Assembly (NCBI GenBank): GCA_035704555.1
Contig: DASSWT010000226.1
Location: forward strand, 1,414-65,413
Direction of reading: 5' to 3'
DNA length: 64,000 nucleotides
From: Saccharospirillum sp.
GTDB lineage: Bacteria > Pseudomonadota > Gammaproteobacteria > Pseudomonadales > Natronospirillaceae
The first letter of the stretch is position 1; the number at the start of each line of letters is the position of its first letter. The notes beneath the pieces are model-generated. The model was given only the letters and a program-made list of their open reading frames with translations. It did not search any database and was not told where the DNA came from. Shown in pieces: positions 30,827-57,369 of this stretch. The position numbers and the translations under genes are program-made.

Positions 30827-32191
30827 ATGACCAAAAAACTCTTTATCAAAACGCACGGCTGCCAGATGAATGAATATGACTCGTCTCGCATGGCCGACCT
30901 GTTGGGCGACAGCCACGGTTACACCCTGACCGACAATGCCGATGAAGCCGACGTCCTGCTGCTGAACACCTGTTCAATCCGCGAAAAAGCGCAGGACAAG
31001 GTGTTCCACCAGCTGGGCCGCTGGAAAAAGCTGAAGGCCAAAAACCCGAACCTGAAAATCGGTGTCGGTGGTTGTGTGGCCTCCCAGGAAGGCCAGGCAA
31101 TTTCGGACCGTGCACCCTATGTTGATATGATCTTTGGTCCGCAGACACTGCATCGCTTGCCGCAAATGTTGGATGCCTCAACCGGCCAGATCGCCAACGC
31201 CGCCGGCAACCGCATCGCCATGGTCGACGTGACCTTCCCTGAAATCGAGAAGTTCGACCACCTGCCCGCGCCAAAAAGTGATGGCGTAACCGCCTTCGTA
31301 TCGGTGATGGAAGGTTGTTCCAAATATTGCACCTTCTGCGTGGTGCCTTACACCCGGGGCGAGGAAGTCAGCCGACCGTTCGATGACGTCATTACCGAAG
31401 TCGTGCAACTGGCGGAACAGGGCGTGCGCGAGATCAACTTTCTCGGCCAGAACGTCAACGCCTACCGGGGCCCACGCCACGACGGCGGTGAAGCCGACCT
31501 GGCCGAGCTGATCACCCTGGCAGCGCGCGTCGATGGCATCGACCGCATCCGTTTCACCACCAGCCACCCGGTGGAGTTCACCGACTCCCTGGTCGATGCC
31601 TACCTGGACGTACCGGAACTGGTCAGCCACCTGCACCTGCCGGTACAAAGTGGTTCAGATGCCATTCTGAACGCCATGAAGCGCGGCCACACGGCGGCCG
31701 AATACATCGAGAAGATGGAACGCATCCGGGCCAACCGCCCCGACATCAGCTTCTCGTCAGATTTCATCATCGGCTTCCCGGGCGAAACCGAGGCCGACTT
31801 CGAAGCCACCATGAACCTGATTCAAACCATTGGCTTCGACCACAGCTTCAGCTTCGTTTATAGCCCACGGCCCGGCACACCGGCAGCCAACCTGGAAGAC
31901 ACAACGCCCGAAGCCACCAAAAAGCAACGCCTGGCCATTCTGCAAGACAGAATCATCCAGCAGGCGGCCCAGATCAGCCGTCGCATGGTCGGCAGCACCC
32001 AAACCATCCTGGTCAGCGAACGCTCCAAGCGCAACCCGGCCGAGCTGCAGGGCCGAACCGAAAACAACCGCCCGACGTTCTTCGAACACGATGACGACGA
32101 ATTGATCGGAAAGTTCGTGCAGGTCCGTATTACCGAAGCCTTTGCCAACAGCCTGCGTGGTGAGGTCATCAATACTGACCTGGCTTATTGA
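30827..32191 (+). CDS. miaB: tRNA-2-methylthio-N6-dimethylallyladenosine synthase
   Basis: [11 protein letters not shown], radical [11 protein letters not shown] and TRAM domain. Confidence 0.98.
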
Positions 32192-32226
32192 GGTTCGGTG
32201 GTTGAACCGGGGGTTGAACTTTTTTC

Positions 32227-32352
32227 GCGCCAGGAGCCCGTATCGGGCACCGGGTATACCTATCCGGGGTCGGCGTGAACCCTTCCATGGGGCCTAGACC
32301 GCAGCATCCATGCTGCGGACTTCCCCGGATAGGTATACCCGGCACCCGATAC
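32227..32352 (+). repeat. Nested hairpin element copy R1
   Basis: Perfect 20-bp stem 32250-32269/32323-32342 around the 53-nt core TCGGCGTGAACCCTTCCATGGGGCCTAGACCGCAGCATCCATGCTGCGGACTT. Confidence 0.92.
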
Positions 32353-32361
32353 TCGTTCTGT

Positions 32362-32380
32362 GGTGGCAGATTTAATCTGC
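32362..32380 (+). repeat. Possible single REP-like unit (GTGG + 2 nt + GCAGATT-T-AATCTGC palindrome)
   Basis: The palindrome at 32366-32380 has GTGG shortly upstream and lies between R1 and R2. Confidence 0.35.
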
Positions 32381-32389
32381 AAATAGTAA

Positions 32390-32545
32390 TTCAAGTTATG
32401 GAGTTCGCGGAAGTGACAAGCGGCGGCTGCCGGGGGTACTCCTGTGGGGAAGTCCGCAGCATGGATGCTGCGGCCTAGGCTCAATGGACGGATCTACGCC
32501 GACCCCACAGGAGTACCCCCGGTAGCCGACGCGGATTCCTGGCAC
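32390..32545 (-). repeat. Nested hairpin element copy R2, with one degenerate terminal repeat
   Basis: Perfect 20-bp stem 32430-32449/32503-32522 around an inverted 53-nt core. TTCAAGTTATGGAGTTCG at 32390-32407. Confidence 0.9.
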
Positions 32546-32609
32546 AAAGGTAATAGCAACCGGCATAACGATGGCTGAGTAACAATTCGTTACCGCCGTC
32601 ATCGACTTT

Positions 32610-43068: not shown

Positions 43069-43260
43069 AGAACTCAAGTTTCGGAGTTCGGGTTGCCTTT
43101 GAGGCATTGGCCCGCGCCGGATACCGGGTGTACCCCTGTGGGGTCGGCGTAAATCCATCCATGGAGCCTAGACCGCAGCATCCATGCTGCGGACTCCCCC
43201 ACAGAGGCACACCCGGCACCCGCCGCTCGTCACCTCAGCGAACTCCGAAACTTGAGTTCT
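43069..43260 (+). mobile_element. MITE-like element: 22-bp perfect terminal inverted repeats enclosing hairpin copy R3
   Basis: AGAACTCAAGTTTCGGAGTTCG at 43069-43090 and its reverse complement at 43239-43260. Stem 43124-43143/43197-43216, core 43144-43196. Confidence 0.8.
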
Positions 43261-43307
43261 AAATTTGCACCTGTGGCCGAAGCAACAACGACAACAAGTA
43301 CCGGTGG

Positions 43308-43472
43308 CTGGGTAGGCCTGTCCGGGGTAGTCTGAGGCATGGACTAAAACGCCAGGAGCGTTTTAGCACGAGCAACAGCGAGCCCGAAGGGTGAATCCCA
43401 TGGACGGGATTCATATCCCGAAGCCTAGGCCCCATGGACGGGTTAACGCCGGCCCCGGATAGGCCTACCCGA
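43308..43472 (-). repeat. Hairpin element copy R4 carrying a ~72-nt nested insert
   Basis: Stem 43308-43327/43453-43472. The core spans 125 nt instead of 53. Confidence 0.85.
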
Positions 43473-43516
43473 CCGCCTGCACGCTTTCTGCCACTGAACA
43501 CCATAAAGCCACCCAT

Positions 43517-43544
43517 AAAAAAAGCCCTGCAAGGCAGGGCTTTT
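43517..43544 (-). terminator. Intrinsic terminator of rplU-rpmA
   Basis: AAAAGCCCTGC-AAG-GCAGGGCTTTT hairpin with a minus-strand T-run. Confidence 0.85.
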
Positions 43545-43565
43545 CAGAGTGTGTCAAAGTGCCAA

Positions 43566-43820
43566 TCAGGCAACGATGTTCACAAACTTGCGGCTATGCT
43601 CGCCCTTGGTAACAAATTCGACCTTGCCGTCTGCCTTGGCAAACAGGGTGTGGTCTTTACCGATACCGACGTTGGTGCCAGCGTGAAAACGGGTACCGCG
43701 CTGACGAATGATGATGGAACCGGCTGTGACAGTCTGACCACCGAAGGCTTTCACGCCAAGGCGTTTGCTCTCGGAATCGCGACCGTTACGAGTACTACCA
43801 CCTGCTTTCTTGTGAGCCAT
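43566..43820 (-). CDS. rpmA: 50S ribosomal protein L27
   Basis: [24 protein letters not shown]. Confidence 0.99.
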
Positions 43821-43832
43821 GGTTTCTCTCCG

Positions 43833-44144
43833 TTATGCTGAAATACCAGTGATTTTAACTTCAGTGAACCACTGACGGTGGCCCATTTGCTTCATGTGGT
43901 GCTTACGACGCTTGAACTTCAGGATCTTCACCTTCTTGTGACGACCATGAGCAACCACCTCGGCAGTTACCTTGGCACCCGCAACAACCGGCGCGCCAAT
44001 GTTCACTTTTTCACCGTTAACCACCAACAGGATTTTATCAAAATCAATGCTAGCACCGGTCTCGGCTTCAATTTTTTCCAGCTTCAGCGTCTCGCCTTCG
44101 CTGACGCGGTACTGCTTGCCACCACTTACGATTACAGCGTACAT
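43833..44144 (-). CDS. rplU: 50S ribosomal protein L21
   Basis: [14 protein letters not shown]...[11 protein letters not shown]. Confidence 0.99.
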
Positions 44145-44270
44145 GTATCTCTCCAATGATTAAAACCAATCCGACCCGCAGCGATTCATTACTTAACCTG
44201 TGTCTAAAGGCAACGCCTACGCTGGGAGCACCCTATAACAGGGAATGAAGCAGGTCGATCAGGGCGCGCA

Positions 44271-44299
44271 ATAATACGGATTTCCAGACCCGGAAGCAA
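44271..44299 (-). promoter_or_regulatory. sigma70 promoter for rplU-rpmA with GC-rich discriminator
   Basis: TTGCTT, 17 nt, TATTAT, followed by TGCGCGCCC. Confidence 0.7.
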
Positions 44300-44340
44300 C
44301 CCCTCAGCGTCGTCTGAACGCTCGCCCCGGCTCCCGGTTC

Positions 44341-44369
44341 TTGACACGACGGCAGGGGCTACCTAGCAT
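44341..44369 (+). promoter_or_regulatory. sigma70 promoter for ispB
   Basis: TTGACA, 17 nt, TAGCAT. Confidence 0.7.
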
Positions 44370-44402
44370 CGCCCGCTGACGTTCACCACAAAGACCCCCC
44401 GC

Positions 44403-45371
44403 ATGGATCAAAAAGCTGTTTTTGCCACCGTCAGTCAGGAATTCGAGGCGGTCAACCAGACCATTCTGTCACAGCTGGAATCCCGGGTGCCGCTGGTGGA
44501 AAAGATTGCTGACTACATTGTCAGCAGCGGTGGCAAGCGGCAGCGTCCCCTGCTGACGCTGCTGGCTGCGGGAGTCAGCGGGGGCATAGAAACCCGCCAT
44601 TACCAGCTGGCAACCGTCATCGAGTTTCTGCATACCGCCACCCTGCTGCATGACGACGTGGTCGACACCTCCGACTTGCGCCGTGGCCGGCCGACAGCGA
44701 ACGCGCGCTGGGGCAACGCCCCCAGCGTGCTGGTCGGTGACTTTTTATACGCCCGGGCCTTTGAATTGCTAGTCGATATCGGCGCCATGCCGGTGATGAA
44801 CCGCCTCGCGGTGGCAACCCGCACCATTGCCGAAGGCGAGGTGCTGCAGCTGATGAACGTGCGCAACCCGGATGCGACCGAAGCCCAGTATATGGACGTG
44901 ATCAAAGGCAAGACCGCCATCCTGTTTCAGGCATCCAGCGAGACGGCCGCCCTGATCAACCAGCAATCTGAAGCCAATACGGAAAAACTGGCAGCCTATG
45001 GGCTGAACCTGGGGCTCGCCTTTCAGCTCATCGACGATGTACTGGATTACGATGGCAATACCGAAACACTGGGCAAGAACGTCGGCGACGATCTGGCGGA
45101 AGGCAAACCCACTCTGCCGCTGATCCATGCCATGCAGAACGCCAGTCCCGATGAAGCCCAGCTGATTCGCCAGGCGATCCGCAAAGGAGGGTTGGAGAAT
45201 CTTGATGCCATCCTCGACATCGTGCACCGCTGTGGTTCCATCGGCTATGTTCGAGACAAGGCGCTGGAGCATGCCGCCATAGCACGTGAGCAACTGGGTG
45301 ATTTTGAGGACTCGGTGTACAAAACGGCGCTGTTGAGTCTGACTGAGATCGCCGTTCAACGCGATTCTTGA
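44403..45371 (+). CDS. ispB: Octaprenyl diphosphate synthase
   Basis: GGKRQRP, LLHDDVVD, LIDDVLDY and GKPTLP motifs. Confidence 0.95.
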   Translation: MDQKAVFATVSQEFEAVNQTILSQLESRVPLVEKIADYIVSSGGKRQRPLLTLLAAGVSGGIETRHYQLATVIEFLHTATLLHDDVVDTSDLRRGRPTANARWGNAPSVLVGDFLYARAFELLVDIGAMPVMNRLAVATRTIAEGEVLQLMNVRNPDATEAQYMDVIKGKTAILFQASSETAALINQQSEANTEKLAAYGLNLGLAFQLIDDVLDYDGNTETLGKNVGDDLAEGKPTLPLIHAMQNASPDEAQLIRQAIRKGGLENLDAILDIVHRCGSIGYVRDKALEHAAIAREQLGDFEDSVYKTALLSLTEIAVQRDS

Positions 45372-45403
45372 TCCAACCCGGGCACTGGCCCGGGCAGATA
45401 ATC

Positions 45404-46141
45404 CTAGCGTTCAGCACCCCGGGCGATCTGAGCATTCACAAAGGCCTGAAGTGCCAGAAAATCCATATCTGAGACAAAGTTAAACTCAATGCCGTAGGCG
45501 GCCATGCTGTTGCTGAGTTCGAACTTATCGAGCTCAGCCCGGATCCGGCTTTCTATGGTAATCACCCGGGTCACATGGCCCACCGTTACCTTGCCGGTCA
45601 ACAGCAGGGTATCCCCGGTTTCACCACAAGGCTGCAAGGTTTCCAGGCGCGCACCGGTTGTCGACAGATCTACAATGGCGCCGAAGGCCCGCTCCTGGCC
45701 GGGCTGACTCTGGTTAACCACCGATACCTGCACGTTTGCCAGCACCCGTTCCGCCTTGCGGATCTCCCCGGCCTCGACCCGGTTTGGCCAGGCCAGATGC
45801 AGATAGGCCGTGGGGATGGAGCACAGGTGCTGTACCTGTGTACGAAAGGCACAGGCGTTCTTGTTGGCGAAGAACCGCAGAATAACCGGCTGCTCCTTAC
45901 GCACCAGCAAGGTACGGCCATCACCGACCACCGGCGTAGTCACCAGCACTGACCGGCCCTGAATATGACCGATAAGCTGGCAATTGTATCGCTTCTCGTC
46001 ACCGGCGATTTCCAGCTTCATACCAAGGCCGACGGGCAGCCTCAACGAGGGGTAATCTACACTGGCCATGGCCAGACATCCTTCAATAAGACCGACAGTA
46101 ACAGACTGGCAATAGTCCGCAGCCGGTTCAGTTTCCACCAT
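45404..46141 (-). CDS. PilZ-domain c-di-GMP-binding (flagellar-brake-like) protein; start may be 46069
   Basis: RKAER (RxxxR) and DLSTTG (DxSxxG) PilZ motifs, with an N-terminal YcgR-like beta domain. Confidence 0.82.
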   Translation of the reverse strand: MVETEPAADYCQSVTVGLIEGCLAMASVDYPSLRLPVGLGMKLEIAGDEKRYNCQLIGHIQGRSVLVTTPVVGDGRTLLVRKEQPVILRFFANKNACAFRTQVQHLCSIPTAYLHLAWPNRVEAGEIRKAERVLANVQVSVVNQSQPGQERAFGAIVDLSTTGARLETLQPCGETGDTLLLTGKVTVGHVTRVITIESRIRAELDKFELSNSMAAYGIEFNFVSDMDFLALQAFVNAQIARGAER

Positions 46142-47350
46142 CTACGTCCCACTGAAATACAACTGCTCACGCGTTGAATCAATGAGTTCGCGCAATTGTC
46201 GCTCGGTCAGTGCCGCACCATTTGACAGCCAGGGCTCCCAGAAAGAACGCGCCGGCATTAAACGGTCATCGGTCGCGGGCCGAAAATCTTTACGGTCCTG
46301 TGCGTCGATTCGCCGCAAATACCCCAGCATTTCCAGCCCGGCGACGTTGGCAACCATATCCTCAGCACTGAAACCAGAGCTGCGCGTTTCGGCATCCGAC
46401 CACTCTTTGTAGATGGTCAGTTCCAGTGCCGCATCCGGGTTCATTTGCGTACCCAGCCACATGGCCAGGGTAAAATGCCGTGCCAGATCATAGCGGCCAT
46501 GCAACGTCAGGCGCTGGCCGGAAAGTTTGGGTAAATCGACGCCAGGCCGCATGCCCGACACCGACCCCAGTGTCGCATAGGAGAGCGCACCAAACACAGC
46601 ACTGCCATCCTGCTCAAAATCCAGGCCGGGGCGCTGAACCAGAGCGGTCAGAACATCCCGCAGCGGAATCCGTTGGCGGCCATCGGCGGCGAAAAAGTCA
46701 TTGATCCACTTTACCTCCTCAACCAAGCGCTCCCGCTGCCCGGTGTCTGACCAGAAAGGCGCGAAGTCCATCATCCAGCCCGACAACTCCGGATCATTCC
46801 ACTTGGTTGAAAACCGTAGGTTTCCATCGCCCAGCTCCACCACCGGGTTCAACGTCTGCCACAGCTGCTCGGCATCTCGCACGGCAGGCAGCTCTGCCAA
46901 TCGTGCATTTAACCAGCTTACCGCCCAGCCCGGCATCGTCACACCGCTCACCCACAAACGCTGCAGGCTGAATGGCTCACCGGGCGTCCAGGTCAGTCGC
47001 AGTGGCAAAAAGCGGTCCAGTATCCGTATCGGGTACCAGGCTTCCAGTTGCAGTTCCTCTGGTGTGATACGTGCCCTGAATTGCGTGTGGGTCAGCGCCG
47101 GCTGGGTAGACGCCAGCAGGATAGCCAGTTTCTGCACATCGTCTTGCTGCACTGTCAGCGAGACCGACTGCCCGGGTTCCAGCCGCGCAGGATGATACTC
47201 ATCCAGCCACTGACGATATTTGCTCAGATCAGAAAAAGGAATGATCGTTCGGGGTGCGCTGTCACCCGGGACCGTCACCGACCAGACAAAAAGTACCAGC
47301 GCCAGTACCAGGATGATCACCGCCAGAGCCAGGCGCCGCATCCAGATCAC
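46142..47350 (-). CDS. Hypothetical membrane-anchored protein
   Basis: 402-aa ORF with an N-terminal TM helix. Its start overlaps the upstream stop (ATGA) and it abuts the PilZ gene. Confidence 0.75.
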   Translation of the reverse strand: MIWMRRLALAVIILVLALVLFVWSVTVPGDSAPRTIIPFSDLSKYRQWLDEYHPARLEPGQSVSLTVQQDDVQKLAILLASTQPALTHTQFRARITPEELQLEAWYPIRILDRFLPLRLTWTPGEPFSLQRLWVSGVTMPGWAVSWLNARLAELPAVRDAEQLWQTLNPVVELGDGNLRFSTKWNDPELSGWMMDFAPFWSDTGQRERLVEEVKWINDFFAADGRQRIPLRDVLTALVQRPGLDFEQDGSAVFGALSYATLGSVSGMRPGVDLPKLSGQRLTLHGRYDLARHFTLAMWLGTQMNPDAALELTIYKEWSDAETRSSGFSAEDMVANVAGLEMLGYLRRIDAQDRKDFRPATDDRLMPARSFWEPWLSNGAALTERQLRELIDSTREQLYFSGT

Positions 47351-48261
47351 GAAGGCACCTCGGTATCGGATGGCTCCACCGGAGGTTCAAAACTGAGTTT
47401 CAGTGCGTCCTGGACACCACGCCGCCAGGGCAGTTGTTTGATGCCAAAGGTGGCCAGAATTTTCTTGGTACTCAGTTCCAGGTTCTGTGGTTTCAGGCTC
47501 TCGTCCTGGCCCGGTGGATAAATAGCTTCGACCGACTCGACTTCAACATCAATGCAGGATTTTGCCGCCTTAACGATGGCTTCGGCGAAAATGTGCCAGT
47601 GGGTCACATCGCTGCCGGCATAGTGGTAAGTCCCCCACAACGGCGGCTCCACATCACAGTCAACCTGCTCCAGCATGGCTATCATCACCCGCGCCAGATC
47701 CGCTGCAGCCGTGGGACAGCCTCGCTGGGTATCTACAACCCGGATGACATCGTGCTGTTGCGCCTCAGCCACAATATGGGTCAGAAAATTAGGGCCGTCG
47801 GCACTAAACACCCAGGAAGAGCGCAGAATCAAATGGCGTTCGCAATGATCGCGCACGGCTTGTTCCGCCAACAGAAAATCACGGCCAGCCGAGGTTACCG
47901 GATGCATCGTATCCTGTTCGGCATAAGCCGTGGCCTTGCTCCCATCAAAGACCTGCTCGCTCGACACCTGCAGCAAGGGGATGCCAGCCTGCTGACAGGC
48001 CCCTGCAAGCACTGCGACACCCTGGTCCATCAGGTGCGGCCAGCGGGAGTCAACCGTAATGTTAGGCATCAGGTCATTGTGCACATAGGCATTGATGACG
48101 TAATCGGGGCGGTGTTCTTTAAGCAGTGCAGCCACGGCCACGGCATCGGTCAGATCCAGCTGGGCATCGGGAACCAGCACGGCCTGGATATTCCGGGCCG
48201 CCACGAGCCGGCCCAGCGCACGCGCCAGTTGCCCCTCGGCGTCAGTAACCAGTAATTTCAC
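47347..48261 (-). CDS. RmlD/RfbD-like sugar-nucleotide-binding SDR protein with degenerate motifs
   Basis: SSEQVFDG, LRSSWVFS, GCPT and GTYHYAG are present. The Rossmann and catalytic motifs are altered. Confidence 0.82.
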   Translation of the reverse strand: MKLLVTDAEGQLARALGRLVAARNIQAVLVPDAQLDLTDAVAVAALLKEHRPDYVINAYVHNDLMPNITVDSRWPHLMDQGVAVLAGACQQAGIPLLQVSSEQVFDGSKATAYAEQDTMHPVTSAGRDFLLAEQAVRDHCERHLILRSSWVFSADGPNFLTHIVAEAQQHDVIRVVDTQRGCPTAAADLARVMIAMLEQVDCDVEPPLWGTYHYAGSDVTHWHIFAEAIVKAAKSCIDVEVESVEAIYPPGQDESLKPQNLELSTKKILATFGIKQLPWRRGVQDALKLSFEPPVEPSDTEVPS

Positions 48262-48273
48262 CCTGATAAAGCC

Positions 48274-48840
48274 TTAAAACGGGATATCGTCGTCAAAATC
48301 GTCGAAGTTATTGGCTGGTTGATGTCCTGTTTGCGGTGCCGGCTGGCTCGGTGCAGGCGCCGGAGAGGGTTTGCCGCCAAAGCCACCCTGAGGCTGACCA
48401 CCAAACCCACCGGAGGACTGGGGTGCATTGCCCTGATAGCCGGTATTCTGGTTGCCCTGACCAGCGAAGCCGCCACTCTGACCCGCACCCGGGTTGTCGC
48501 TGCGACCACCGATAAACTGCATTTCGTTGGCCACAATCTCGGTGCTGTATTTCTCAACACCGTTCTGGTCCTGCCATTTGCGGGTTTGCAGGCGACCTTC
48601 AATATAAACCTGTGAGCCCTTGCGCAGATAGGTCGCCGCGTTCTCAGCCATGCGGCCAAAAATCACAATACGGTGCCATTCGGTGCTGTCGGACCGGTTG
48701 CCCTGCTCGTCGCGGGGCCCCAGTTCATTGGTAGCCACATTCAGGTTGACCACCTGAGTGCCCGAGGCGGTAGCCCGCACGTCCGGGTCCTGCCCAAGGC
48801 GCCCCAGGATAATCACTTTGTTAACTGTTCCGCGTGCCAT
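48274..48840 (-). CDS. ssb: Single-stranded DNA-binding protein
   Basis: VNKVIILGRLGQDP, EGRLQTRKW and C-terminal DDDIPF. Confidence 0.98.
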   Translation of the reverse strand: MARGTVNKVIILGRLGQDPDVRATASGTQVVNLNVATNELGPRDEQGNRSDSTEWHRIVIFGRMAENAATYLRKGSQVYIEGRLQTRKWQDQNGVEKYSTEIVANEMQFIGGRSDNPGAGQSGGFAGQGNQNTGYQGNAPQSSGGFGGQPQGGFGGKPSPAPAPSQPAPQTGHQPANNFDDFDDDIPF

Positions 48841-48978
48841 AGAGTTGCGTCCTATTCTGTAAAAGTCATTTCAGGGAGGCCACCCGTGCACCTGCACCCC
48901 GGTGTTCCCTGCGTCAGTCGTTGTTATCTTTGAACCGCTCATGCGATAAATCAAGGGGCTGTATACCAGCCCGCCTGG

Positions 48979-50211
48979 TTATGAGCGCAGCGACAGGTCC
49001 GGATCATCGCCGCTTGCCTGGCGGCTGGCCGAACCGGCCGATGAACCAGCCACACTCCGATCAAGCGCCCATAGTAACACCATCCACACCAGCATCACTG
49101 CGATGCTGATCATAGCAATGCCCATCATTTCCCATTGCTGGTAGGCCCAACCGCCACAGAGCCCACCCAGGGCCGCACCCAGAAACTGACCGGTTGAAAA
49201 CACGCCCATGGCGGTGCCCCGTGCATGTTCGGGGGCACGACGGCTAATCAGCGACGGCAGGCTGGCTTCGACAAAGTTAAAGCCCACGAAGAACAACCAG
49301 ACCAGGCCGATACTCAGCCAGGCCACTGAACTCAGCCCGAGACCTGCCATGGCCAGGGTGATAAAAGCCCCGGCAAGGATCAAAAACACCCGATGCGCCT
49401 TGCGACGCTCAGCCAGCGCAATCATCGGCACCATGCCTAAAAAGGACAACACCATCACCGGCGCATAAACCCAGCCGAGCTGGTCACCCAGCACGCCTTG
49501 CTGAACCAGCACGACCGGCAACCCGACAAACATCATCGTCATGGTCAGGTGCAATACAAACACACCGATATTCAAGGGCACCAGTTGGCGGTCACGAACC
49601 ACCCTTCCGAGCTGACTGCCCTGCCAGCGACGCTCTTCATGTACTTTCGCTGCCGGTGGAGCCGGTAACCAGAACACGATCACCAGGCCAGCCAGCGCCA
49701 TCAGCGAGGTCGCCCAGAACACCCCGGACAACCCAAACGCACTGGCGATCACCGGGCCAACAATCACCGCCAGCACAAAGGAGCCACCAATAATGGCGCC
49801 AACGATGGCCATCGCCTTGGTACGCTCTTCCGGGCGAGTATAATCGGCCAGCAACGCCAGAATAACACTGGCAATGGCGCCCGCACCCTGTAGAGCACGG
49901 CCAATCACCACACCTAGCACATGCTCGGAAAGGGCTGCGATCACCGACCCGAGGATAAATATCAACAAACCGGCGGCGATAACGGGTTTACGGCCAAACC
50001 GATCAGACAGCATCCCCAGAGGAATCTGCAGCACCGCCTGGGTAATGCCATAGATCCCCAACGCAATACCCAACAGCACGGTGGTGGCACCGGTCAGAGA
50101 CTGGCCATACAAGGTCAGAATCGGCAGTACCATGAAAAGACCGAGCATGCGCGAGGCATACAACAGTGCCAAGCCTGTCAGCGCCTTTTTTTCCAAACTA
50201 TTAAAAGCCAT
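48979..50211 (-). CDS. yajR: MFS transporter, YajR family
   Basis: RMLGLFMVLP, GIYGITQAVLQIP and GRALQGAGA motifs. Conserved uvrA-MFS-ssb order. Confidence 0.85.
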   Translation of the reverse strand: MAFNSLEKKALTGLALLYASRMLGLFMVLPILTLYGQSLTGATTVLLGIALGIYGITQAVLQIPLGMLSDRFGRKPVIAAGLLIFILGSVIAALSEHVLGVVIGRALQGAGAIASVILALLADYTRPEERTKAMAIVGAIIGGSFVLAVIVGPVIASAFGLSGVFWATSLMALAGLVIVFWLPAPPAAKVHEERRWQGSQLGRVVRDRQLVPLNIGVFVLHLTMTMMFVGLPVVLVQQGVLGDQLGWVYAPVMVLSFLGMVPMIALAERRKAHRVFLILAGAFITLAMAGLGLSSVAWLSIGLVWLFFVGFNFVEASLPSLISRRAPEHARGTAMGVFSTGQFLGAALGGLCGGWAYQQWEMMGIAMISIAVMLVWMVLLWALDRSVAGSSAGSASRQASGDDPDLSLRS

Positions 50212-50387
50212 ATATCGGCAGTGTCCGTAATGTCCCAGGTTCAGAGCCCAGGCTGATCAATTGAGTCTGTTAACTAGAGTCGATACAAAGTCGCGCATGG
50301 TACCAGAAATGATTCCGGTTAGGCTTGCCACAGGCGGGTATTTTCCACGTCGGTTGCACTGTATTCGCGGGTTACTTAGTCGACACA

Positions 50388-50510
50388 GCCTGAATCCGTG
50401 CCCGACATCGGGTACGCCCCTGACGGGACGCTGCAAGTACATCCATGTAAGCTCGGCGGTCCCCATCCATGGGGACCGACGCCCGCCAGGGGCGCACCCG
50501 ATGCCAGGCA
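50388..50510 (+). repeat. Hairpin element copy R5 with a variant core
   Basis: Stem 50406-50427/50482-50503, 54-nt core, inner hairpin CGGTCCCCAT-CC-ATGGGGACCG, and arm AATCCGTGCCCGACATCGGG similar to R2 and R6. Confidence 0.8.
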
Positions 50511-50562
50511 CTAGCCTGAGTCGGCAACCTTAGCTATAAAGCGATTCAGGATATTCTGAAAC

Positions 50563-50591
50563 TTGGGTTCTGTACGTTTATACAGTAAACT
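50563..50591 (+). promoter_or_regulatory. LexA (SOS) box CTGT-N8-ACAG inside a putative uvrA sigma70 promoter
   Basis: CTGTACGTTTATACAG at 50570-50585, with TTGGGT (50563-50568), 17 nt, TAAACT (50586-50591). Confidence 0.85.
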
Positions 50592-50606
50592 GGGCCGCTT
50601 GCTTAG

Positions 50607-50790
50607 CTCAAGTTTCGGAGTTCGCCACCAACTGAGTGTCAGGTGCCGGGTATGCCTATCTGGGGAAGCCTGAGGCATGAATGCCGAAGTCTAGGCCCCA
50701 TGGATGGGTTAACGCCGGCCCCAGATAGGCATACCCGGTGCCGGACACGGATTCCTGGCACCAAGTCAAACCCGAACTCCGAAACTTGAG
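50607..50790 (-). mobile_element. MITE-like element enclosing hairpin copy R6
   Basis: CTCAAGTTTCGGAGTTCG at 50607-50624 and its reverse complement at 50773-50790. Perfect stem 50646-50665/50719-50738. Confidence 0.8.
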
Positions 50791-50853
50791 TTGCTTAACT
50801 GCCCAGCCTGGCAGTCGCAACCATCATCGTAACAGCCGGAAAAAGAGGAAGGC

Positions 50854-53703
50854 ATGGACAAGATTTCCGTCCAGGGGGCTCGCACCCATAACCTGAAGAA
50901 CATCGATGTGGACATCCCACGCGATAAACTCGTCGTTATTACCGGCCTGTCCGGGTCGGGCAAATCGTCCCTGGCTTTCGATACTCTCTATGCCGAAGGC
51001 CAGCGTCGCTACGTCGAATCATTATCGACCTATGCCCGCCAGTTCCTGTCGATGATGGAAAAGCCCGATGTCGATCACATCGAAGGGCTGTCGCCGGCCA
51101 TTTCCATCGAGCAGAAGACCACCAGCCATAACCCGCGCTCAACCGTGGGCACCACCACCGAAATTTACGACTATCTGCGCCTGCTGTATGCGCGGGTGGG
51201 CGAACCACGCTGCCCCGAGCACGATGAACCGCTGGAAGCCCAGACCATCAGCCAGATGGTCGACCAGGTGCTGGCGCTGCCCGAGGGCAGCAAGCTGATG
51301 ATGCTGGCGCCAATCATTGATGACCGCAAGGGTGAGCACCTGCATGTATTCAACGAACTGCGCTCTCAGGGGTTCGTGCGGGTGCGGGTCGATGGCACGG
51401 TTATGGACCTCGATGAAGTGCCCGAGCTCGATAAGAAACGCAAGCACAGCATCGAAGCCGTGGTTGACCGCTTCAAGGTACGGGACGATCTGAAATTGCG
51501 CCTGGCGGAATCCTTCGAGACCTGCCTGACGCTCTCTGGCGGCATCGTAAAAATGGTCTACATGGACGGCGACGGGCCTGACATGCTGTTTTCCAACCGC
51601 TTTGCCTGCCCGGTCTGCGGCTATTCCATTGCCGAACTCGAACCGCGTATGTTCTCGTTCAACAACCCGGCCGGTGCCTGCGAGCAGTGCGACGGCCTGG
51701 GCATGAAACAGTATTTCGACGGCAGCAAGGTGGTGCGCGACACGGCCCTGTCGCTGGCCGAAGGGGCGATACCCGGCTGGGACCGGCGCTCGGTCTATTA
51801 TTTCAGTCAGTTGCAATCCCTTGGCGAGCATTACGGCGTCGACATCGACCAGCCGTTCAAAGACCTGCCCAAGCGTTTTCAACGCTATGTACTGGACGGT
51901 ACCGGCAAAACAGAAATCGATTTCTCCTATGTGAACAGCCGAGGCGCCACCTACTCGCGCAGCCATGCCTTTGAAGGCGTGATGCCCAATATGGAGCGCC
52001 GCTACCGGGAAACCGACAGCCAGATGGTGCGCGAAGAATTGTCGAAGTTCCTTACCGAACAGGACTGTCCGGGCTGTCACGGCAGCCGTTTGAAACAAAG
52101 CGCACGCCATGTATTTGTCAAAGGCATCAACTTGCCCGAAGTTACTCACATGGCCATTGGCGACTCCCTGACCTACTTCCAGGAACTGACGCTGACCGGC
52201 TCACGCGCCCAGATCGCCGACAAGATCCTGCGTGAAATTGTTCAGCGCATGACCTTTCTGGTCAACGTCGGGCTCGACTACCTGACGCTCGACCGCAGCG
52301 CCGACACCCTCTCCGGCGGTGAAACCCAGCGCATTCGCCTCGCCAGCCAGATCGGCGCCGGCCTGGTTGGCGTGATGTACATTCTGGACGAACCCTCCAT
52401 CGGTCTGCACCAGCGCGACAACGACCGCCTGCTGGAAACCCTGACCAACCTGCGCGATATGGGCAACACCGTTTTGGTAGTCGAGCACGATGAAGACGCC
52501 ATTCGCGCAGCCGACTTTGTGCTCGACATCGGCCCCGGTGCCGGTATTCATGGCGGGCACATCGTCGCCTCGGGCACCCCGGCCGACATCATGGCCCACC
52601 CCGAGTCGCTGACCGGTCAGTACCTGAGTGGCAAACAGCGCATTGAGGTACCGAAAAAACTAACGCCGATGGACCCGAAGAAACTCATTACCATCACCGG
52701 TGCGCGCGGAAACAACCTCAACGATGTGACCCTGAACCTGCCAGTCGGTCTCTTTACCTGCGTCACCGGGGTATCCGGTTCCGGTAAATCAACACTGATC
52801 AACCAAACACTGCACCCACTGGCGGCTACTGTTCTGAACAAAGCCACCACCCTGACCCCGGCGGCGCATGAGAGCATCAGTGGCCTGGAGCATTTCGACA
52901 AGGCGGTCGACATCGACCAGAGCCCGATCGGCCGTACCCCGCGCTCGAACCCGGCGACCTATACCGGCATATTCACCGCCATCCGCGAACTGTTCGCGGG
53001 CACCCAGGAAGCGCGGTCACGCGGTTACCAGCCGGGGCGGTTCAGCTTTAACGTCAAGGGCGGTCGTTGCGAGGCTTGCCAGGGCGATGGCCTGATCAAG
53101 GTGGAAATGCACTTCCTGGCCGATATCTACGTCCCCTGCGATGTATGCACTGGCAAACGTTACAACCGTGAGACGCTCGACATCCGATACAAAGGCAAGA
53201 ACATTCACGAAGTGCTGGAAATGACCATCGAAGAGGGCCGAGCCTTCTTCGACGCCATTCCGGCGCTGTCACGCAAGCTGCAAACCCTGATTGATGTCGG
53301 CCTGACCTACGTCAAACTGGGGCAAAGCGCGACCACCCTGTCGGGCGGTGAAGCCCAGCGCGTCAAGCTGGCGCGGGAACTGTCGAAGCGCGACACCGGT
53401 AATACGCTGTACATTCTGGATGAGCCCACCACCGGCCTGCATTTTCACGACATCAAGCAATTGCTGGCGGTCCTGCACCGGCTGCGTGACCACGGCAACA
53501 CCGTCGTGGTGATCGAACACAACCTGGATGTCATCAAAACGGCTGACTGGATCATAGATTTGGGACCGGAAGGCGGTAGTCGTGGCGGTTACATCATCGC
53601 CGAGGGCACGCCCAAAGACGTAGCCAATAACAAGGCCTCGGCGACCGGTAAGTACCTGAAGCCGCTGCTGAAAGCCGGCGCAAAAGCCCTGGAAACGGCC
53701 TAA
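50854..53703 (+). CDS. uvrA: Excinuclease ABC subunit A
   Basis: [18 protein letters not shown], two LSGGE signatures and zinc fingers. Confidence 0.99.
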
Positions 53704-53706
53704 CAC

Positions 53707-53732
53707 AAGAACCCCGTTAGCGGGGTTCTTTT
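53707..53732. terminator. Bidirectional terminator between uvrA and mazG, overlapping the last mazG codons
   Basis: AAGAACCCCG-TTAG-CGGGGTTCTT followed by TT. Confidence 0.8.
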
Positions 53733-54538
53733 GCCTTGGCCTGGTTCCAGAACGCATCCAGGCTGTCGAGATTGTGTGCGGACCAGTCACCACCGCCAGC
53801 CTGAACCTGCTGTTCGACCTGACTGAACCGGGATTCAAACTTACGCGCAGCTTTGCGCAGCGCCTGTTCCGGATCAACCTCCAAGTGACGCGACAAGTTG
53901 GCGATCACAAACAACAGATCGCCAAGCTCTTCTTCAGTATGGGCGGCATCGCCCGAAGCTGCGGCCGCACGCAATTCAGCCAGCTCTTCATCAACCTTAT
54001 CGAAAACACCACTGGCATCCGGCCAGTCAAACCCAACCCGGGCAGCCCGCTTCTGCAACTTGCGGGCGCGCAGCAAACCAGGCAATGAACGCGGTACATC
54101 GTCCAGCAGTGACACAGCACGGCCACTGTTCTGCTTCTCAACGTCTTTCAACTGATCCCACTGACCGTTCACCGTACCGGCATCGGTTTGCTGATTCGGG
54201 TCTATTTGGCTTTCAAGCGTACCGGCCGGAAACACATGAGGGTGGCGGCTGATCAGCTTGGCGACCAGATCGTGAACCACATCATCGAGGTCAAAGCGCT
54301 GTTCTTCAGCCGCTATCTGGGCATAAAACACCACCTGAAACACCAGGTCACCCAGCTCCTCCCGAAGGTGTGCGTAGTCGCCCCGCTCAATGGTGTCGAT
54401 CACCTCATACACCTCTTCCAGGGTATGAGGAACAATCGACTCGTAAGTCTGCTCCAGATCCCACGGGCACCCGGTACCCGGCGTGCGCAACCGCTGCATC
54501 AGCGTTTTAAGATCGTGATAATCGTATCGTTGAGTCAA
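53717..54538 (-). CDS. mazG: Nucleoside triphosphate pyrophosphohydrolase
   Basis: LR.P..GCPWD.EQT, EELGDL (twice) and QKRAARVGFDW. TTG start. Confidence 0.95.
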   Translation of the reverse strand: MTQRYDYHDLKTLMQRLRTPGTGCPWDLEQTYESIVPHTLEEVYEVIDTIERGDYAHLREELGDLVFQVVFYAQIAAEEQRFDLDDVVHDLVAKLISRHPHVFPAGTLESQIDPNQQTDAGTVNGQWDQLKDVEKQNSGRAVSLLDDVPRSLPGLLRARKLQKRAARVGFDWPDASGVFDKVDEELAELRAAAASGDAAHTEEELGDLLFVIANLSRHLEVDPEQALRKAARKFESRFSQVEQQVQAGGGDWSAHNLDSLDAFWNQAKAKEPR

Positions 54539-54556
54539 ATTAGTCTGCCTGTTCCT

Positions 54557-54748
54557 AGCTCAAGTTTCGGAGTTCGCGGTTGACTATGTTGCCAGTCGCC
54601 CGCACCGGCCACCAGGTAGGACTATCGAGGGTCGGCGTAAACCCATCCATGGGGCCTGGACCGCAGCATCCCTGCTGCGGACCACCCTCGATAGTCCTAC
54701 CTGGCATCCGGTGCTAACTCTGTGCAAGCGAACTCCGAAACTTGAGCT
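54557..54748 (+). mobile_element. MITE-like element enclosing hairpin copy R7
   Basis: Perfect 21-bp terminal inverted repeat 54557-54577/54728-54748 and perfect stem 54612-54631/54685-54704. Confidence 0.8.
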
Positions 54749-54766
54749 GTAAGCTCCTAAGTGCCA

Positions 54767-57013
54767 TTAATGCTTCACGCGCGGCATTACTCGCCGCACA
54801 TCGGCTACGTTGGCGATTTTGGACAACTGGGCCATGACTTTACCTAAGGAATCGATGTCCTCTATCTCCACCGTCAGCCGCATGTCTGCCTGGCTTTCAT
54901 CCTTGTTCGACAGGGTGTTAACCGAGGTCACGTTAATATTGCTGTTGGCCATGATCATCATGATGTCGCGCAGCAGGCCGGTGCGGTCATAAGCCAGAAT
55001 ATTCAGTTCGACCGGATAGGTGCGGCGGGTCTCACCGCCCCAGCTAACTTCAATGATCCGCTCCGGCTCACGGTCTTTCATTTGCAGCAGATTCACGCAG
55101 TCCTGCCGGTGGATCGAAACGCCCCGACCCAGGGTGATATAACCCACCACCGGATCGCCCGGTACCGGCTTACAGCAGTTGGCAATCTGCGTCATCATGT
55201 TGCCGACGCCGTGAATCATCAGATCGCCACTGGGTTTGAGCTCACTGGCCGTCGACAGCTGAATTTCATCCGGCCGTGCCGGGTTAACCATGGCTTCCGC
55301 CGAATGCACCACCTGCATCAGACGCAAGTCGCCAGCCCCAATGGCCGCGTACATGTCGTCAGCCATTTGAAAGTTTACCCGCTTGGCCAGTTCATCCATA
55401 TCCAGCTTGGGCAGATTGAAGCGTTGCAACTCACGCATCAGCATGGCTTTGCCATCACGCAGGTTCTCGGTCCGGTCCAGTGACTTGAACCAGTGACGAA
55501 TTTTGGCGCGGGCCCGGGAACTGTGTACATAACCCAGGTCCGGGTTCAGCCAGTCGCGGCTGGGCGCCGGATCCCGGCCGGTCAGCACCGACACCTGATC
55601 GCCGATTTTAAGGCGATGGGTCAACGGAACAATACGCCCGTTCACCTTGGCACCCCGACAACGGTTACCGACATCGGTGTGGATCTTATAGGCGAAATCG
55701 ATCGGTGTGGCGCCCTTGACCAGATCAATGACGTGACCTTCAGGCGTCAGCACGTAGATGCGGTCGGTCGCGACATCCGCGCCCCACTCTTCCACCATTT
55801 CATGGATGTCACCGAGTTCATCGTGCCATTCAAGCACCTGGCGCAGCCAATTGACCTTCTCTTCATAACCGCGTGAGTGCGCCTTGCCTTTGGCATCGGT
55901 GCCTTTGTAGACCCAGTGCGCACAGATCCCCAGTTCGGCATCGTCGTGCATCTCATGGGTGCGGATCTGCACTTCCACCACCTTGCCTTCCGGCCCGATA
56001 ACGGCAGTGTGCAATGAGCGATAACCGTTGGATTTGGGCGAGGCGATGTAATCGTCAAATTCGCGGGGAATGTGGCGCCACAGAGAGTGAACAATACCGA
56101 GCACGGTGTAGCAATCGCGCACATCCGGCACCAGCACGCGAAATGCCCGAATGTCGTATACCTGGCTGAAGCTGATGTTCTTGCGCTTCATTTTGCGCCA
56201 GATCGAATAGATGTGCTTCGCCCGCCCCTGAATCTCGGCCTTAATGGCGGCCTTGCTGACTTCTTCCTGGAGAATGTTTTGCACGTTTTCGATGTAGCGC
56301 TGACGGTCCAGGCGCTTTTCATCGAGCAGCTTGGCGATCTTCTTGTAATCGAGGGGTTCGATGTAGCGAAAAGAGAGGTCTTCGAGCTCCCACTTCAGGT
56401 GGCCCACACCCAGGCGATGGGCCAGTGGCGCGTAAATATCGAACACCTCCCGCGCCACCTTGTAGCGACGCTGCGCCGGCGCGTTCTTGACCGCCCGAAT
56501 CGCGCAAGTCCGTTCCGCCAGCTTGATCAGCGCAACGCGAACGTCATCGATCATCGCCACCAGCATCTTGCGCACCGCTTCACCCTGGGTTTCGTGCTGG
56601 CCCAGCACCGCCCGGCGCGTCGACTTGTGTTTGGTATGGATGGCGGCCATGCGCAGCACGCCTTCAATCAGCGTGGCTACCTGCGGGCCGAACTGGTCGC
56701 GAACGGTATCCAGCGGCAGCTCTTCCTCACGCACGGTACGGTAGAGAATGGCTGCGATGATGGCGTCCTGGTCGAGGTTCAGCTCCGACAGGATTTCAGC
56801 CATTTCCAGCCCGGTACGGTAAGCCGACTCACCCTCACCCCAGTGGTTCTTGGGTGTGTCAGTCTCTTCTTCGGCGACTCTGGCAATGCGACAGGCACGC
56901 AGCAGCTCTTCCCGGTCGAGCAAGGGGTTTTGCCGTTCCACGCGGACCAGCCACGACTCGAGGTCCACCGTTCCATCACTGAATACGGGTTGATCTTCGC
57001 GTACCTTAACCAT
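54767..57013 (-). CDS. relA: GTP diphosphokinase ((p)ppGpp synthetase)
   Basis: APLAHRLG, GRAKHIYSIWRKM, YRSLHT and EVQIRT motifs, with TGS and ACT domains. The HD hydrolase motif is absent. Confidence 0.97.
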   Translation of the reverse strand: MVKVREDQPVFSDGTVDLESWLVRVERQNPLLDREELLRACRIARVAEEETDTPKNHWGEGESAYRTGLEMAEILSELNLDQDAIIAAILYRTVREEELPLDTVRDQFGPQVATLIEGVLRMAAIHTKHKSTRRAVLGQHETQGEAVRKMLVAMIDDVRVALIKLAERTCAIRAVKNAPAQRRYKVAREVFDIYAPLAHRLGVGHLKWELEDLSFRYIEPLDYKKIAKLLDEKRLDRQRYIENVQNILQEEVSKAAIKAEIQGRAKHIYSIWRKMKRKNISFSQVYDIRAFRVLVPDVRDCYTVLGIVHSLWRHIPREFDDYIASPKSNGYRSLHTAVIGPEGKVVEVQIRTHEMHDDAELGICAHWVYKGTDAKGKAHSRGYEEKVNWLRQVLEWHDELGDIHEMVEEWGADVATDRIYVLTPEGHVIDLVKGATPIDFAYKIHTDVGNRCRGAKVNGRIVPLTHRLKIGDQVSVLTGRDPAPSRDWLNPDLGYVHSSRARAKIRHWFKSLDRTENLRDGKAMLMRELQRFNLPKLDMDELAKRVNFQMADDMYAAIGAGDLRLMQVVHSAEAMVNPARPDEIQLSTASELKPSGDLMIHGVGNMMTQIANCCKPVPGDPVVGYITLGRGVSIHRQDCVNLLQMKDREPERIIEVSWGGETRRTYPVELNILAYDRTGLLRDIMMIMANSNINVTSVNTLSNKDESQADMRLTVEIEDIDSLGKVMAQLSKIANVADVRRVMPRVKH

Positions 57014-57186
57014 CAGCTACTCTTGTGTTATTCAAATCACGGCATAGCCTGACTATGCCCGGACATCCTGTCATTGGGTCACCCCGAAAACGGGCGCACC
57101 TTAGTCATTGAACCTCGCGGACGCAAGCGGCGTTCCGCAATTGCCTTCTCGCCTTAGCCAGTTTCGGGCCAGGTTGTGCCTTAGGA

Positions 57187-57369
57187 CTCAAGTTTCGGAG
57201 TTCGGTCGACTAGGAGGTATTGGCCCGCACCGGCTACCGGGTATGCCCCTGTGGGGTCGGCGTAGATCCATCCATGGAGCCTAGACCGCAGCATCCATGC
57301 TGCGGACTACCCCACAGGGGCACACCCGGCACCCGCTGCTAGTCTTTTAGGCGAACTCCAAAACTTGCG
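57187..57369 (+). mobile_element. MITE-like element enclosing hairpin copy R8
   Basis: Terminal repeat at 57187-57204, degenerate partner at 57352-57369 abutting the cysM stop. Stem 57237-57256/57310-57329. Confidence 0.78.

Follow-up and report, generated by a model that had tools for sequence, protein, structure and literature searches.

The 64,000-nucleotide stretch of Saccharospirillum sp. DNA analysed here (assembly GCA_035704555.1, contig DASSWT010000226.1, positions 1,414 to 65,413 of the forward strand; hereafter the window, whose own numbering is used for all window positions) contains several copies of an intergenic hairpin repeat, some of which are enclosed by an outer inverted repeat of 18 bp. 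Nine matches to CTCAAGTTTCGGAGTTCG or its reverse complement were found in the window at up to three mismatches (0.04 expected; none of 100 shuffles reached nine). Eight of these form inverted pairs, with starts at 43073/43239, 50607/50773, 54559/54729 and 57187/57352, and thereby delimit four elements, R3, R6, R7 and R8, of 184, 184, 188 and 183 bp, respectively. We consider the outer repeat to represent, with a probability of about 0.88, the terminal inverted repeats (TIRs) of a miniature inverted-repeat transposable element (MITE) originating from a clade of approx. 1.66-kb insertion sequences (ISs) of the IS4 family, ISPepr1 subgroup. The elements are thus ordinary non-autonomous transposons, and the MITE family to which they belong occurs in numerous marine and saline Gammaproteobacteria.

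All four enclosed copies are intergenic. R3 (43073-43256, + strand) is located in the obgE-rpmA spacer, with its TIRs at 43073-43090 and 43239-43256 (each 18/18) and its hairpin core on the + strand; the complementarity of its ends reaches 22 bp, spanning 43069-43260, and the same site is occupied in a related strain. R6 (50607-50790, − strand) has both TIRs at 18/18, an 18-bp complementarity and a core that is also on the − strand; it lies upstream of uvrA, with 63 bp left to the ATG. R7 (54559-54746, + strand), again with both TIRs 18/18 and with a complementarity of 20 bp (21 bp with a G-T pair), fills the mazG-relA spacer, leaving 20 bp to the mazG start and 20 bp to the relA stop. R8 (57187-57369, + strand) has a left TIR of 18/18 and a right TIR of 16/18 (two mismatches) that adjoins the cysM stop codon. 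An earlier reading of this DNA, made from the sequence alone (the sequence-only reading), had recognized the same four shells, including the degenerate right end of R8, at lengths close to ours. No gene was assigned inside the window elements, and the mechanically predicted open reading frames (ORFs) overlapping them were dismissed as spurious and left unscanned. In four metagenome runs holding this genome, contigs diverge exactly at the outer edges of the repeat (43258, 50607, 54559 and 57367), and the summed contig depth across the elements is tens of times the single-copy depth, which is a rough sign of multiple copies rather than a count.

A full-length partner and its family

An exact scan with the 18-mer, covering one genome per species, yielded at least 98 loci, and the same 18-mer was used to scan metagenomes. 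The latter scan retrieved two full-length elements, of 1660 bp (L170, 5504-7163) and 1678 bp (L122, 127-1804), each with a left end of 18/18 and a right end of 17/18, and each with one ORF, of 494 or 497 amino acids. The transposase ORF flanked by the same repeat, which the sequence-only reading had proposed to look for, therefore exists. An unbiased view is provided by elements L189-L202, since they were fetched through the protein (72-74% identical) and not through the repeat: they are 1661-1664 bp long, with ends of 16-17/18 where both were found, and three copies are bordered by flush target-site duplications (TSDs; TTATGA, TTATTGA and TTATGA), i.e. the full-length IS makes the same duplications as the shells described below. 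The transposase measures 494-510 amino acids across the full-length elements, and it has at least 1407 relatives, most of them on contigs of approx. 1.6-2 kb, as expected for a repeated IS.

Transposase genes or gene fragments of 25-51% identity also adjoin the exact 18-mer at four further loci (L115, L135, L156 and L137), the last of which is a 1039-bp deletion derivative. The apparently solo end found in Parashewanella proved to be the right end of a degraded IS copy: in P. hymeniacidonis (L081, 5959-7232) a C-terminal transposase fragment and the right TIR are retained. Just upstream, and apparently nested in the degraded IS, are an IS200-like Y1 transposase gene and an IS110-like fragment, which were judged to be unrelated nested insertions. 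The viral contigs contained one match, a C-terminal fragment of the transposase. No recurrent ORF adjoins the repeat among the at least 98 genome loci, and a candidate Reinekea interior was discarded, having no transposase inside.

The transposase matches the Pfam profiles DDE_5 (2e-22) and DDE_Tnp_1 (4e-16), as well as NCBIfam NF049925 (IS4 family transposase), with 280 and 270 bits against a curated cut-off of 250; a sequence search of the PDB gave no match. The IS4 family is defined by the arrangement D(60-110)D(100-150)E together with a Y(2)R(3)E(6)K motif (De Palmenaer, Siguier and Mahillon 2008, PMC2266710). In an alignment of 11 transposases the conserved residues comprise VLDD (131-132), D237 and Y364-x2-R367-x3-E371-x6-K378, all invariant except D131/D132, which are kept in at least 90% of rows. 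The spacings of the DDE triad (D132, D237 and E371) are 104 and 133 residues, within the IS4 ranges, and the Y(2)R(3)E(6)K motif is complete.

Members of the ISPepr1 subgroup of this family are 1500-1600 bp long, begin with 5'-CT at ends of the form YT-AA-YTT---A, and insert at A+T-rich targets with direct repeats of 7-8 bp (PMC2266710). The end sequence CTCAAGTTTCGGA matches the published consensus at nine of nine fixed positions; a comparison with IS-family ends had been suggested by the sequence-only reading. The nearest annotated relatives in plasmid records (Prokaryotic Genome Annotation Pipeline) are ISBf8 and ISTeha4, whose inverted ends, located here as CTAAAGTTTCCCACC and CTAAAACTTGAAAGTT, respectively, both fit the consensus pattern. 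The IS clade resembles the ISPepr1 subgroup in its single ORF, DDE transposase, complete Y(2)R(3)E(6)K motif, 5'-CT ends and short, A+T-rich target duplications, and its size of approx. 1.66 kb is close to the 1665 bp of the ISBf8 record. It differs from ISBf8 and ISTeha4 in a transposase only 25-30% identical to theirs, and from ISPepr1 in TSDs that are mostly 6-7 bp and not 7-8 bp; its hosts are marine and saline Gammaproteobacteria; the window elements differ further from a full-length IS of this type in being 184-bp derivatives without a gene. To judge from the sequence comparisons, assignment of the clade to the ISPepr1 subgroup of the IS4 family is well supported, though not complete.

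Target sites, interiors and a proposed mode of transposition

Among the matches listed, to which the counts of shells and interiors given here refer, the exact 18-mer occurs in Saccharospirillum (the source of the elements closest to those of the window), Reinekea, Nitrincola, Microbulbifer, Marinimicrobium and Cellvibrionaceae, and also in Sedimenticola, Thiodiazotropha, tubeworm symbionts, Thiotrichales/Leucothrix, Ectothiorhodospiraceae, Psychromonas and Parashewanella. In most cases two inverted copies lie 44-474 bp apart, contrary to the predominance of unpaired singletons that the sequence-only reading had named as evidence against a transposon; many apparent singletons are either truncated by a contig end or have a more degenerate partner end. 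The few matches outside the Gammaproteobacteria look like chance occurrences, since they are unpaired. A search of plasmid records with the end sequence gave chance matches only, and a literature search for the repeat sequence, for MITEs in these genera and for ISPepr1-derived MITEs found nothing relevant in the library covered.

Pooling of the genome and metagenome loci gave 78 non-redundant shells of 44-474 bp (mode 184 bp), representing some dozen genera of Gammaproteobacteria. Of these shells, 27 are bordered by exact TSDs of 5-8 bp lying flush with both ends (6 bp long in 14 shells, 7 bp long in 11, and 5 bp and 8 bp long in one each), whereas random re-pairing of left with right flanks would yield approx. 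1.0; in a smaller first sample the figures were 23 of 58 shells and 0.8. The duplicated bases are 86% A+T, as in the target preference of ISPepr1-type elements, though the host genomes are approx. 55-58% G+C, and they follow the approximate pattern TTA(W)TAA (e.g. TTAATAC, TCTTGAA, TACATAA, TTAATTA and TTATAA). The TSDs also define the exact ends of the element.

In the window itself the duplications are mostly eroded. R6 is flanked by a 7-bp direct repeat, TTGCTTA, at 50599-50605 and 50791-50797; the right copy is flush with the TIR and the left one is separated from it by a single G (50606). The GCTT reported earlier at R6 alone is therefore part of a longer repeat with a one-base offset, and the flanks of R3, R7 and R8 retain only 3-4-nt remnants. 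The statement in the sequence-only reading that no consistent TSD exists holds inside the window and fails for the family; none was seen there because the window copies are old. Their age is indicated by the erosion of most TSDs and by the fact that R3 is common to a related strain. Empty alleles were not recovered: the orthologous sites seen were all filled and contigs break at the repeats, and when empty sites were sought through identical flanking proteins (relA, L27) contigs ended within the repeats and the one long relative was filled.

The interiors of the 78 shells fall into 22 families without detectable mutual similarity. The commonest, with 47 members in Saccharospirillum, Microbulbifer, Cellvibrionaceae, Ectothiorhodospiraceae and others, is the hairpin-core type seen in the window; elsewhere the ends enclose REPIN-like palindromes, A+T-rich sequence or almost nothing. 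Inverted GTAGGGTGCGC...GCGCACCCTAC pairs of the REPIN-like kind lie within shells of Sedimenticola, Thiodiazotropha, tubeworm symbionts and one Microbulbifer (L001, L014, L018, L020, L026, L027, L028, L042, L047, L048 and L097) and represent a second kind of palindromic repeat nested in the MITE. Very short shells of 63-87 bp (L009, L035, L044, L051 and L060 of Microbulbifer; L023, 4042-4125) are internal-deletion derivatives of the long hairpin form and not empty precursors, since a remnant of the right hairpin arm can be read directly from their sequence. Because the same shell holds 22 unrelated interiors, the hairpin must be regarded as cargo. A MITE shell separate from the hairpin module was the first of two alternatives offered by the sequence-only reading, and it is supported by the transposase with shared ends, the ISPepr1 consensus, the TSDs and the 22 interiors.

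From the anatomy of the elements, in which shared ends, a transposase, TSDs, a preference for A+T-rich targets and diverse interiors are all seen, and from what is established for IS10 and IS50 of the IS4 family, we infer how binding, cleavage and mobilization in trans would proceed. The DDE transposase of 494-510 amino acids, supplied by a full-length copy, would bind the 18-bp ends and pair them, excise the element and integrate it at an A+T-rich site of the TTA..TAA type, with cuts staggered by 6-7 bp, whose repair would generate the TSD. Only the ends would be required, so anything between them would be carried along; in Saccharospirillum-like genomes this passenger is a long covarying hairpin with a core of approx. 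53 nt.

Probable transposon ends and structured interior

The second alternative was that the outer repeat forms the basal stem of a larger structure. The whole element does fold as one long rod (z = -8.8 as DNA, z = -13.9 as RNA), which by itself would fit a transposon end or a structural stem equally. These readings can be told apart by covariation among 30 aligned hairpin-type copies. The 13 TIR pairs predicted hardly vary, with double changes at only two pairs (in four and two sequences), whereas the inner 20-bp stem shows compensatory changes at 15 of its 20 pairs, in up to 12 of the 30 sequences; the small hairpins of the conserved core, approx. 53 nt long, also covary. The ends are therefore constrained in sequence and the inner stem in pairing. 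A TIR fixed in sequence and almost devoid of covariation fits a transposase-binding end and not the basal stem of an RNA, and since unrelated interiors and a transposase gene likewise lie between these ends, the basal-stem reading is disfavoured and is not the primary explanation.

Several observations weigh against the assignment to an ISPepr1-type MITE. Of the four shelled window copies, three lack an intact TSD, although their TIRs are perfect apart from the two mismatches in the right end of R8. Neither the window nor any Saccharospirillum locus fetched yielded a transposase, and when the four metagenomes holding this genome were compared with the full-length L122 at a nucleotide likeness of at least 80%, only the ends matched; a divergent copy may be present, and the window copies may be orphans of a past burst. 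The size of 1.66 kb and the TSD length of 6-7 bp lie slightly outside the published ISPepr1 ranges; the lengths observed (14 TSDs of 6 bp, 11 of 7 bp, one of 8 bp) overlap the 7-8 bp of the subgroup but run shorter. The loci were ascertained by the exact 18-mer, so the conservation of the repeat across genera is overstated. A further objection comes from the two usable orthologous pairs (R3 with L100, and L032 with L082), whose TIRs are identical at 70 of 72 positions, compared with 141 of 181 in the flanks and 88 of 112 in the linkers (Fisher p = 3e-5), and whose arms and cores are 93% and 90% identical. A dead MITE should not be conserved in place in this manner; the pattern suggests either purifying selection at these sites or gene conversion between the many copies.

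If selection is responsible, the shell would not be purely selfish DNA, and the MITE may have seeded a structured module, with its transposon ends, the covarying 20-bp stem and the core of approx. 53 nt all held by selection at individual loci. We consider this bolder view unlikely; if true, the MITE would be a vehicle spreading a regulatory or protein-binding module across the operons of several gammaproteobacterial orders, with further small elements entering the hairpin loops and occasional flipping between the ends.

Likewise improbable is that the host has come to retain a repeat of transposon origin, along with the hairpin and its core, as a closing stem or protein-binding site, in a structured intergenic element that e.g. 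stabilizes or punctuates operon transcripts. In agreement with this, TIRs, arms and core at orthologous sites are 90-97% identical compared with 72-85% for flanks and linkers, the element folds as a single rod, and all four shelled copies would be transcribed, since R3, R7 and R8 lie between co-directional genes and R6 in the uvrA leader. Core-bearing copies also appear to outlast their TIRs: among 20 such copies not selected by an exact end, 12 have at least one end at 12/18 or better (expected by chance in approx. 6% for both ends together, 1.6% and 4.9% separately) and eight have no recognizable end. However, only two orthologous pairs are available and gene conversion among approx. 100 copies would give the same pattern without selection; the near-absence of TIR covariation means that any constraint acts on sequence and not on pairing; and the same repeat encloses 22 unrelated interiors and a transposase. 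Rfam gave no match at the gathering score in the whole window, only chance-level hairpin matches (E 0.08-4), and the RNA runs are too sparse to show transcripts.

At one orthologous site in two Saccharospirillum genomes (L053, 7764-7965, and L070, 1371-1558), whose flanks are approx. 93% identical and whose elements have arms of one subfamily, everything enclosed by the TIRs runs in opposite directions in the two genomes. The interior could have flipped in situ, or the element could have been excised and re-inserted. That the repeat pair is a DNA inversion site, making the element a small invertible switch and not only a transposon, is very improbable. The case is single, and it is accounted for just as well by excision and re-insertion or by separate insertions of two elements at a favoured TTAATTA site; the elements have no linked invertase gene, and since they are nearly palindromic, inversion alters little.

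Further copies, nested layers and related repeats

Seven copies of the hairpin core were located in the window, plus R5 with a variant core. Besides the four shelled elements described above as MITEs, R2 (32390-32560, − strand) has one recognizable end at 32390-32407 (15/18), the other being decayed (best 9/18); the degenerate solo end noted earlier at 32390 is thus real and belongs to this copy. Three copies have no intact shell, as had been noted before: R1 (32217-32384, + strand), where a left end can be faintly traced at 32187 (11/18); R4 (43300-43480, − strand), which contains a nested mini-element of approx. 72 nt; and the variant-core copy R5 (50388-50510, + strand), with a possible decayed right end at 50550-50567 (12/18). 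The best 18-mer matches at the expected places of these three copies are 9-12/18. The decayed ends of R1, R2, R4 and R5 were scored by ungapped scans; gapped alignment inflated the matches and was discarded. The candidate right TIR of R5, GATATTCTGAAACTTGGG, lies immediately 5' of the palindrome CTGTACGTTTATACAG (50550-50585). While the shelled copies are old insertions, R1, R4 and R5 lost their ends or never had them. The eight end-less copies among the 20 mentioned above indicate that shell-less copies of this kind are common; such copies may have decayed, or the hairpin may also occur by itself.

The mini-element of approx. 72 nt resides in the inner-hairpin loop of the core. It is present in R4 (43336-43420) and absent from the orthologue in L100, and likewise present in L086 and absent from the orthologous L095 (L071 is listed with these loci); its presence or absence at orthologous sites identifies it as a separately mobile layer. 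In some copies (L053, 7849; L096, 467) an insertion of approx. 20 nt, GGGCGG(G/A)ATGCCGCCCACTCA, replaces GGCGTAA at the 5' side of the core, and a possible RNA contig (run X23) beside a core match has a loose end with the same GGGCGG(G/A)ATGCCGCCCACTCA variant. In S. salsuginis a member of a different subfamily (L052, 741-924) lies in different flanks just upstream of a uvrA-like gene, and is probably an insertion independent of R6 (window 50607-50790).

Bacterial MITEs such as the Correia elements of Neisseria and the ERIC/IRU elements of enterobacteria are 100-250 bp long, have TIRs, duplicate their target and occur in many copies per genome, often at intergenic, co-transcribed positions, where they fold as a long hairpin. 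The window family resembles them in size, TIRs, TSDs, intergenic sites, hairpin fold and copy number. It differs in that an autonomous partner with the same ends has been identified, that at least 22 unrelated interiors, spread over several orders, share a single pair of ends, and that the commonest interior has a conserved core and covarying arms. REPINs, which like REP elements are mobilized by RAYT tyrosine transposases, have conserved arms and variable loops, with no such TIR and no TSD. They are likewise intergenic palindromic repeats, and REPIN-like pairs even reside inside some shells, but in the elements studied here the arms vary and the core is conserved, and the shell has DDE-type TSDs and a DDE partner. 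On these grounds a REPIN/RAYT reading of the shell was rejected.

The outer layer of this nested repeat family is thereby explained as transposon ends, for which the family can be named, a partner gene is known and the target is defined, and the remaining questions narrow to the hairpin cargo. Should it be confirmed that the ends are conserved at orthologous sites, this would merit closer study. In practical terms, the 18-mer is a simple search key for annotating these elements, which break short-read assemblies of Saccharospirillum, Microbulbifer, Sedimenticola and Thiodiazotropha exactly at the repeat. Their residence in operon spacers and 5' leaders (uvrA, relA-mazG) could affect gene expression, and the association of one pair of ends with at least 22 unrelated interiors demonstrates how little of a MITE needs to be conserved.

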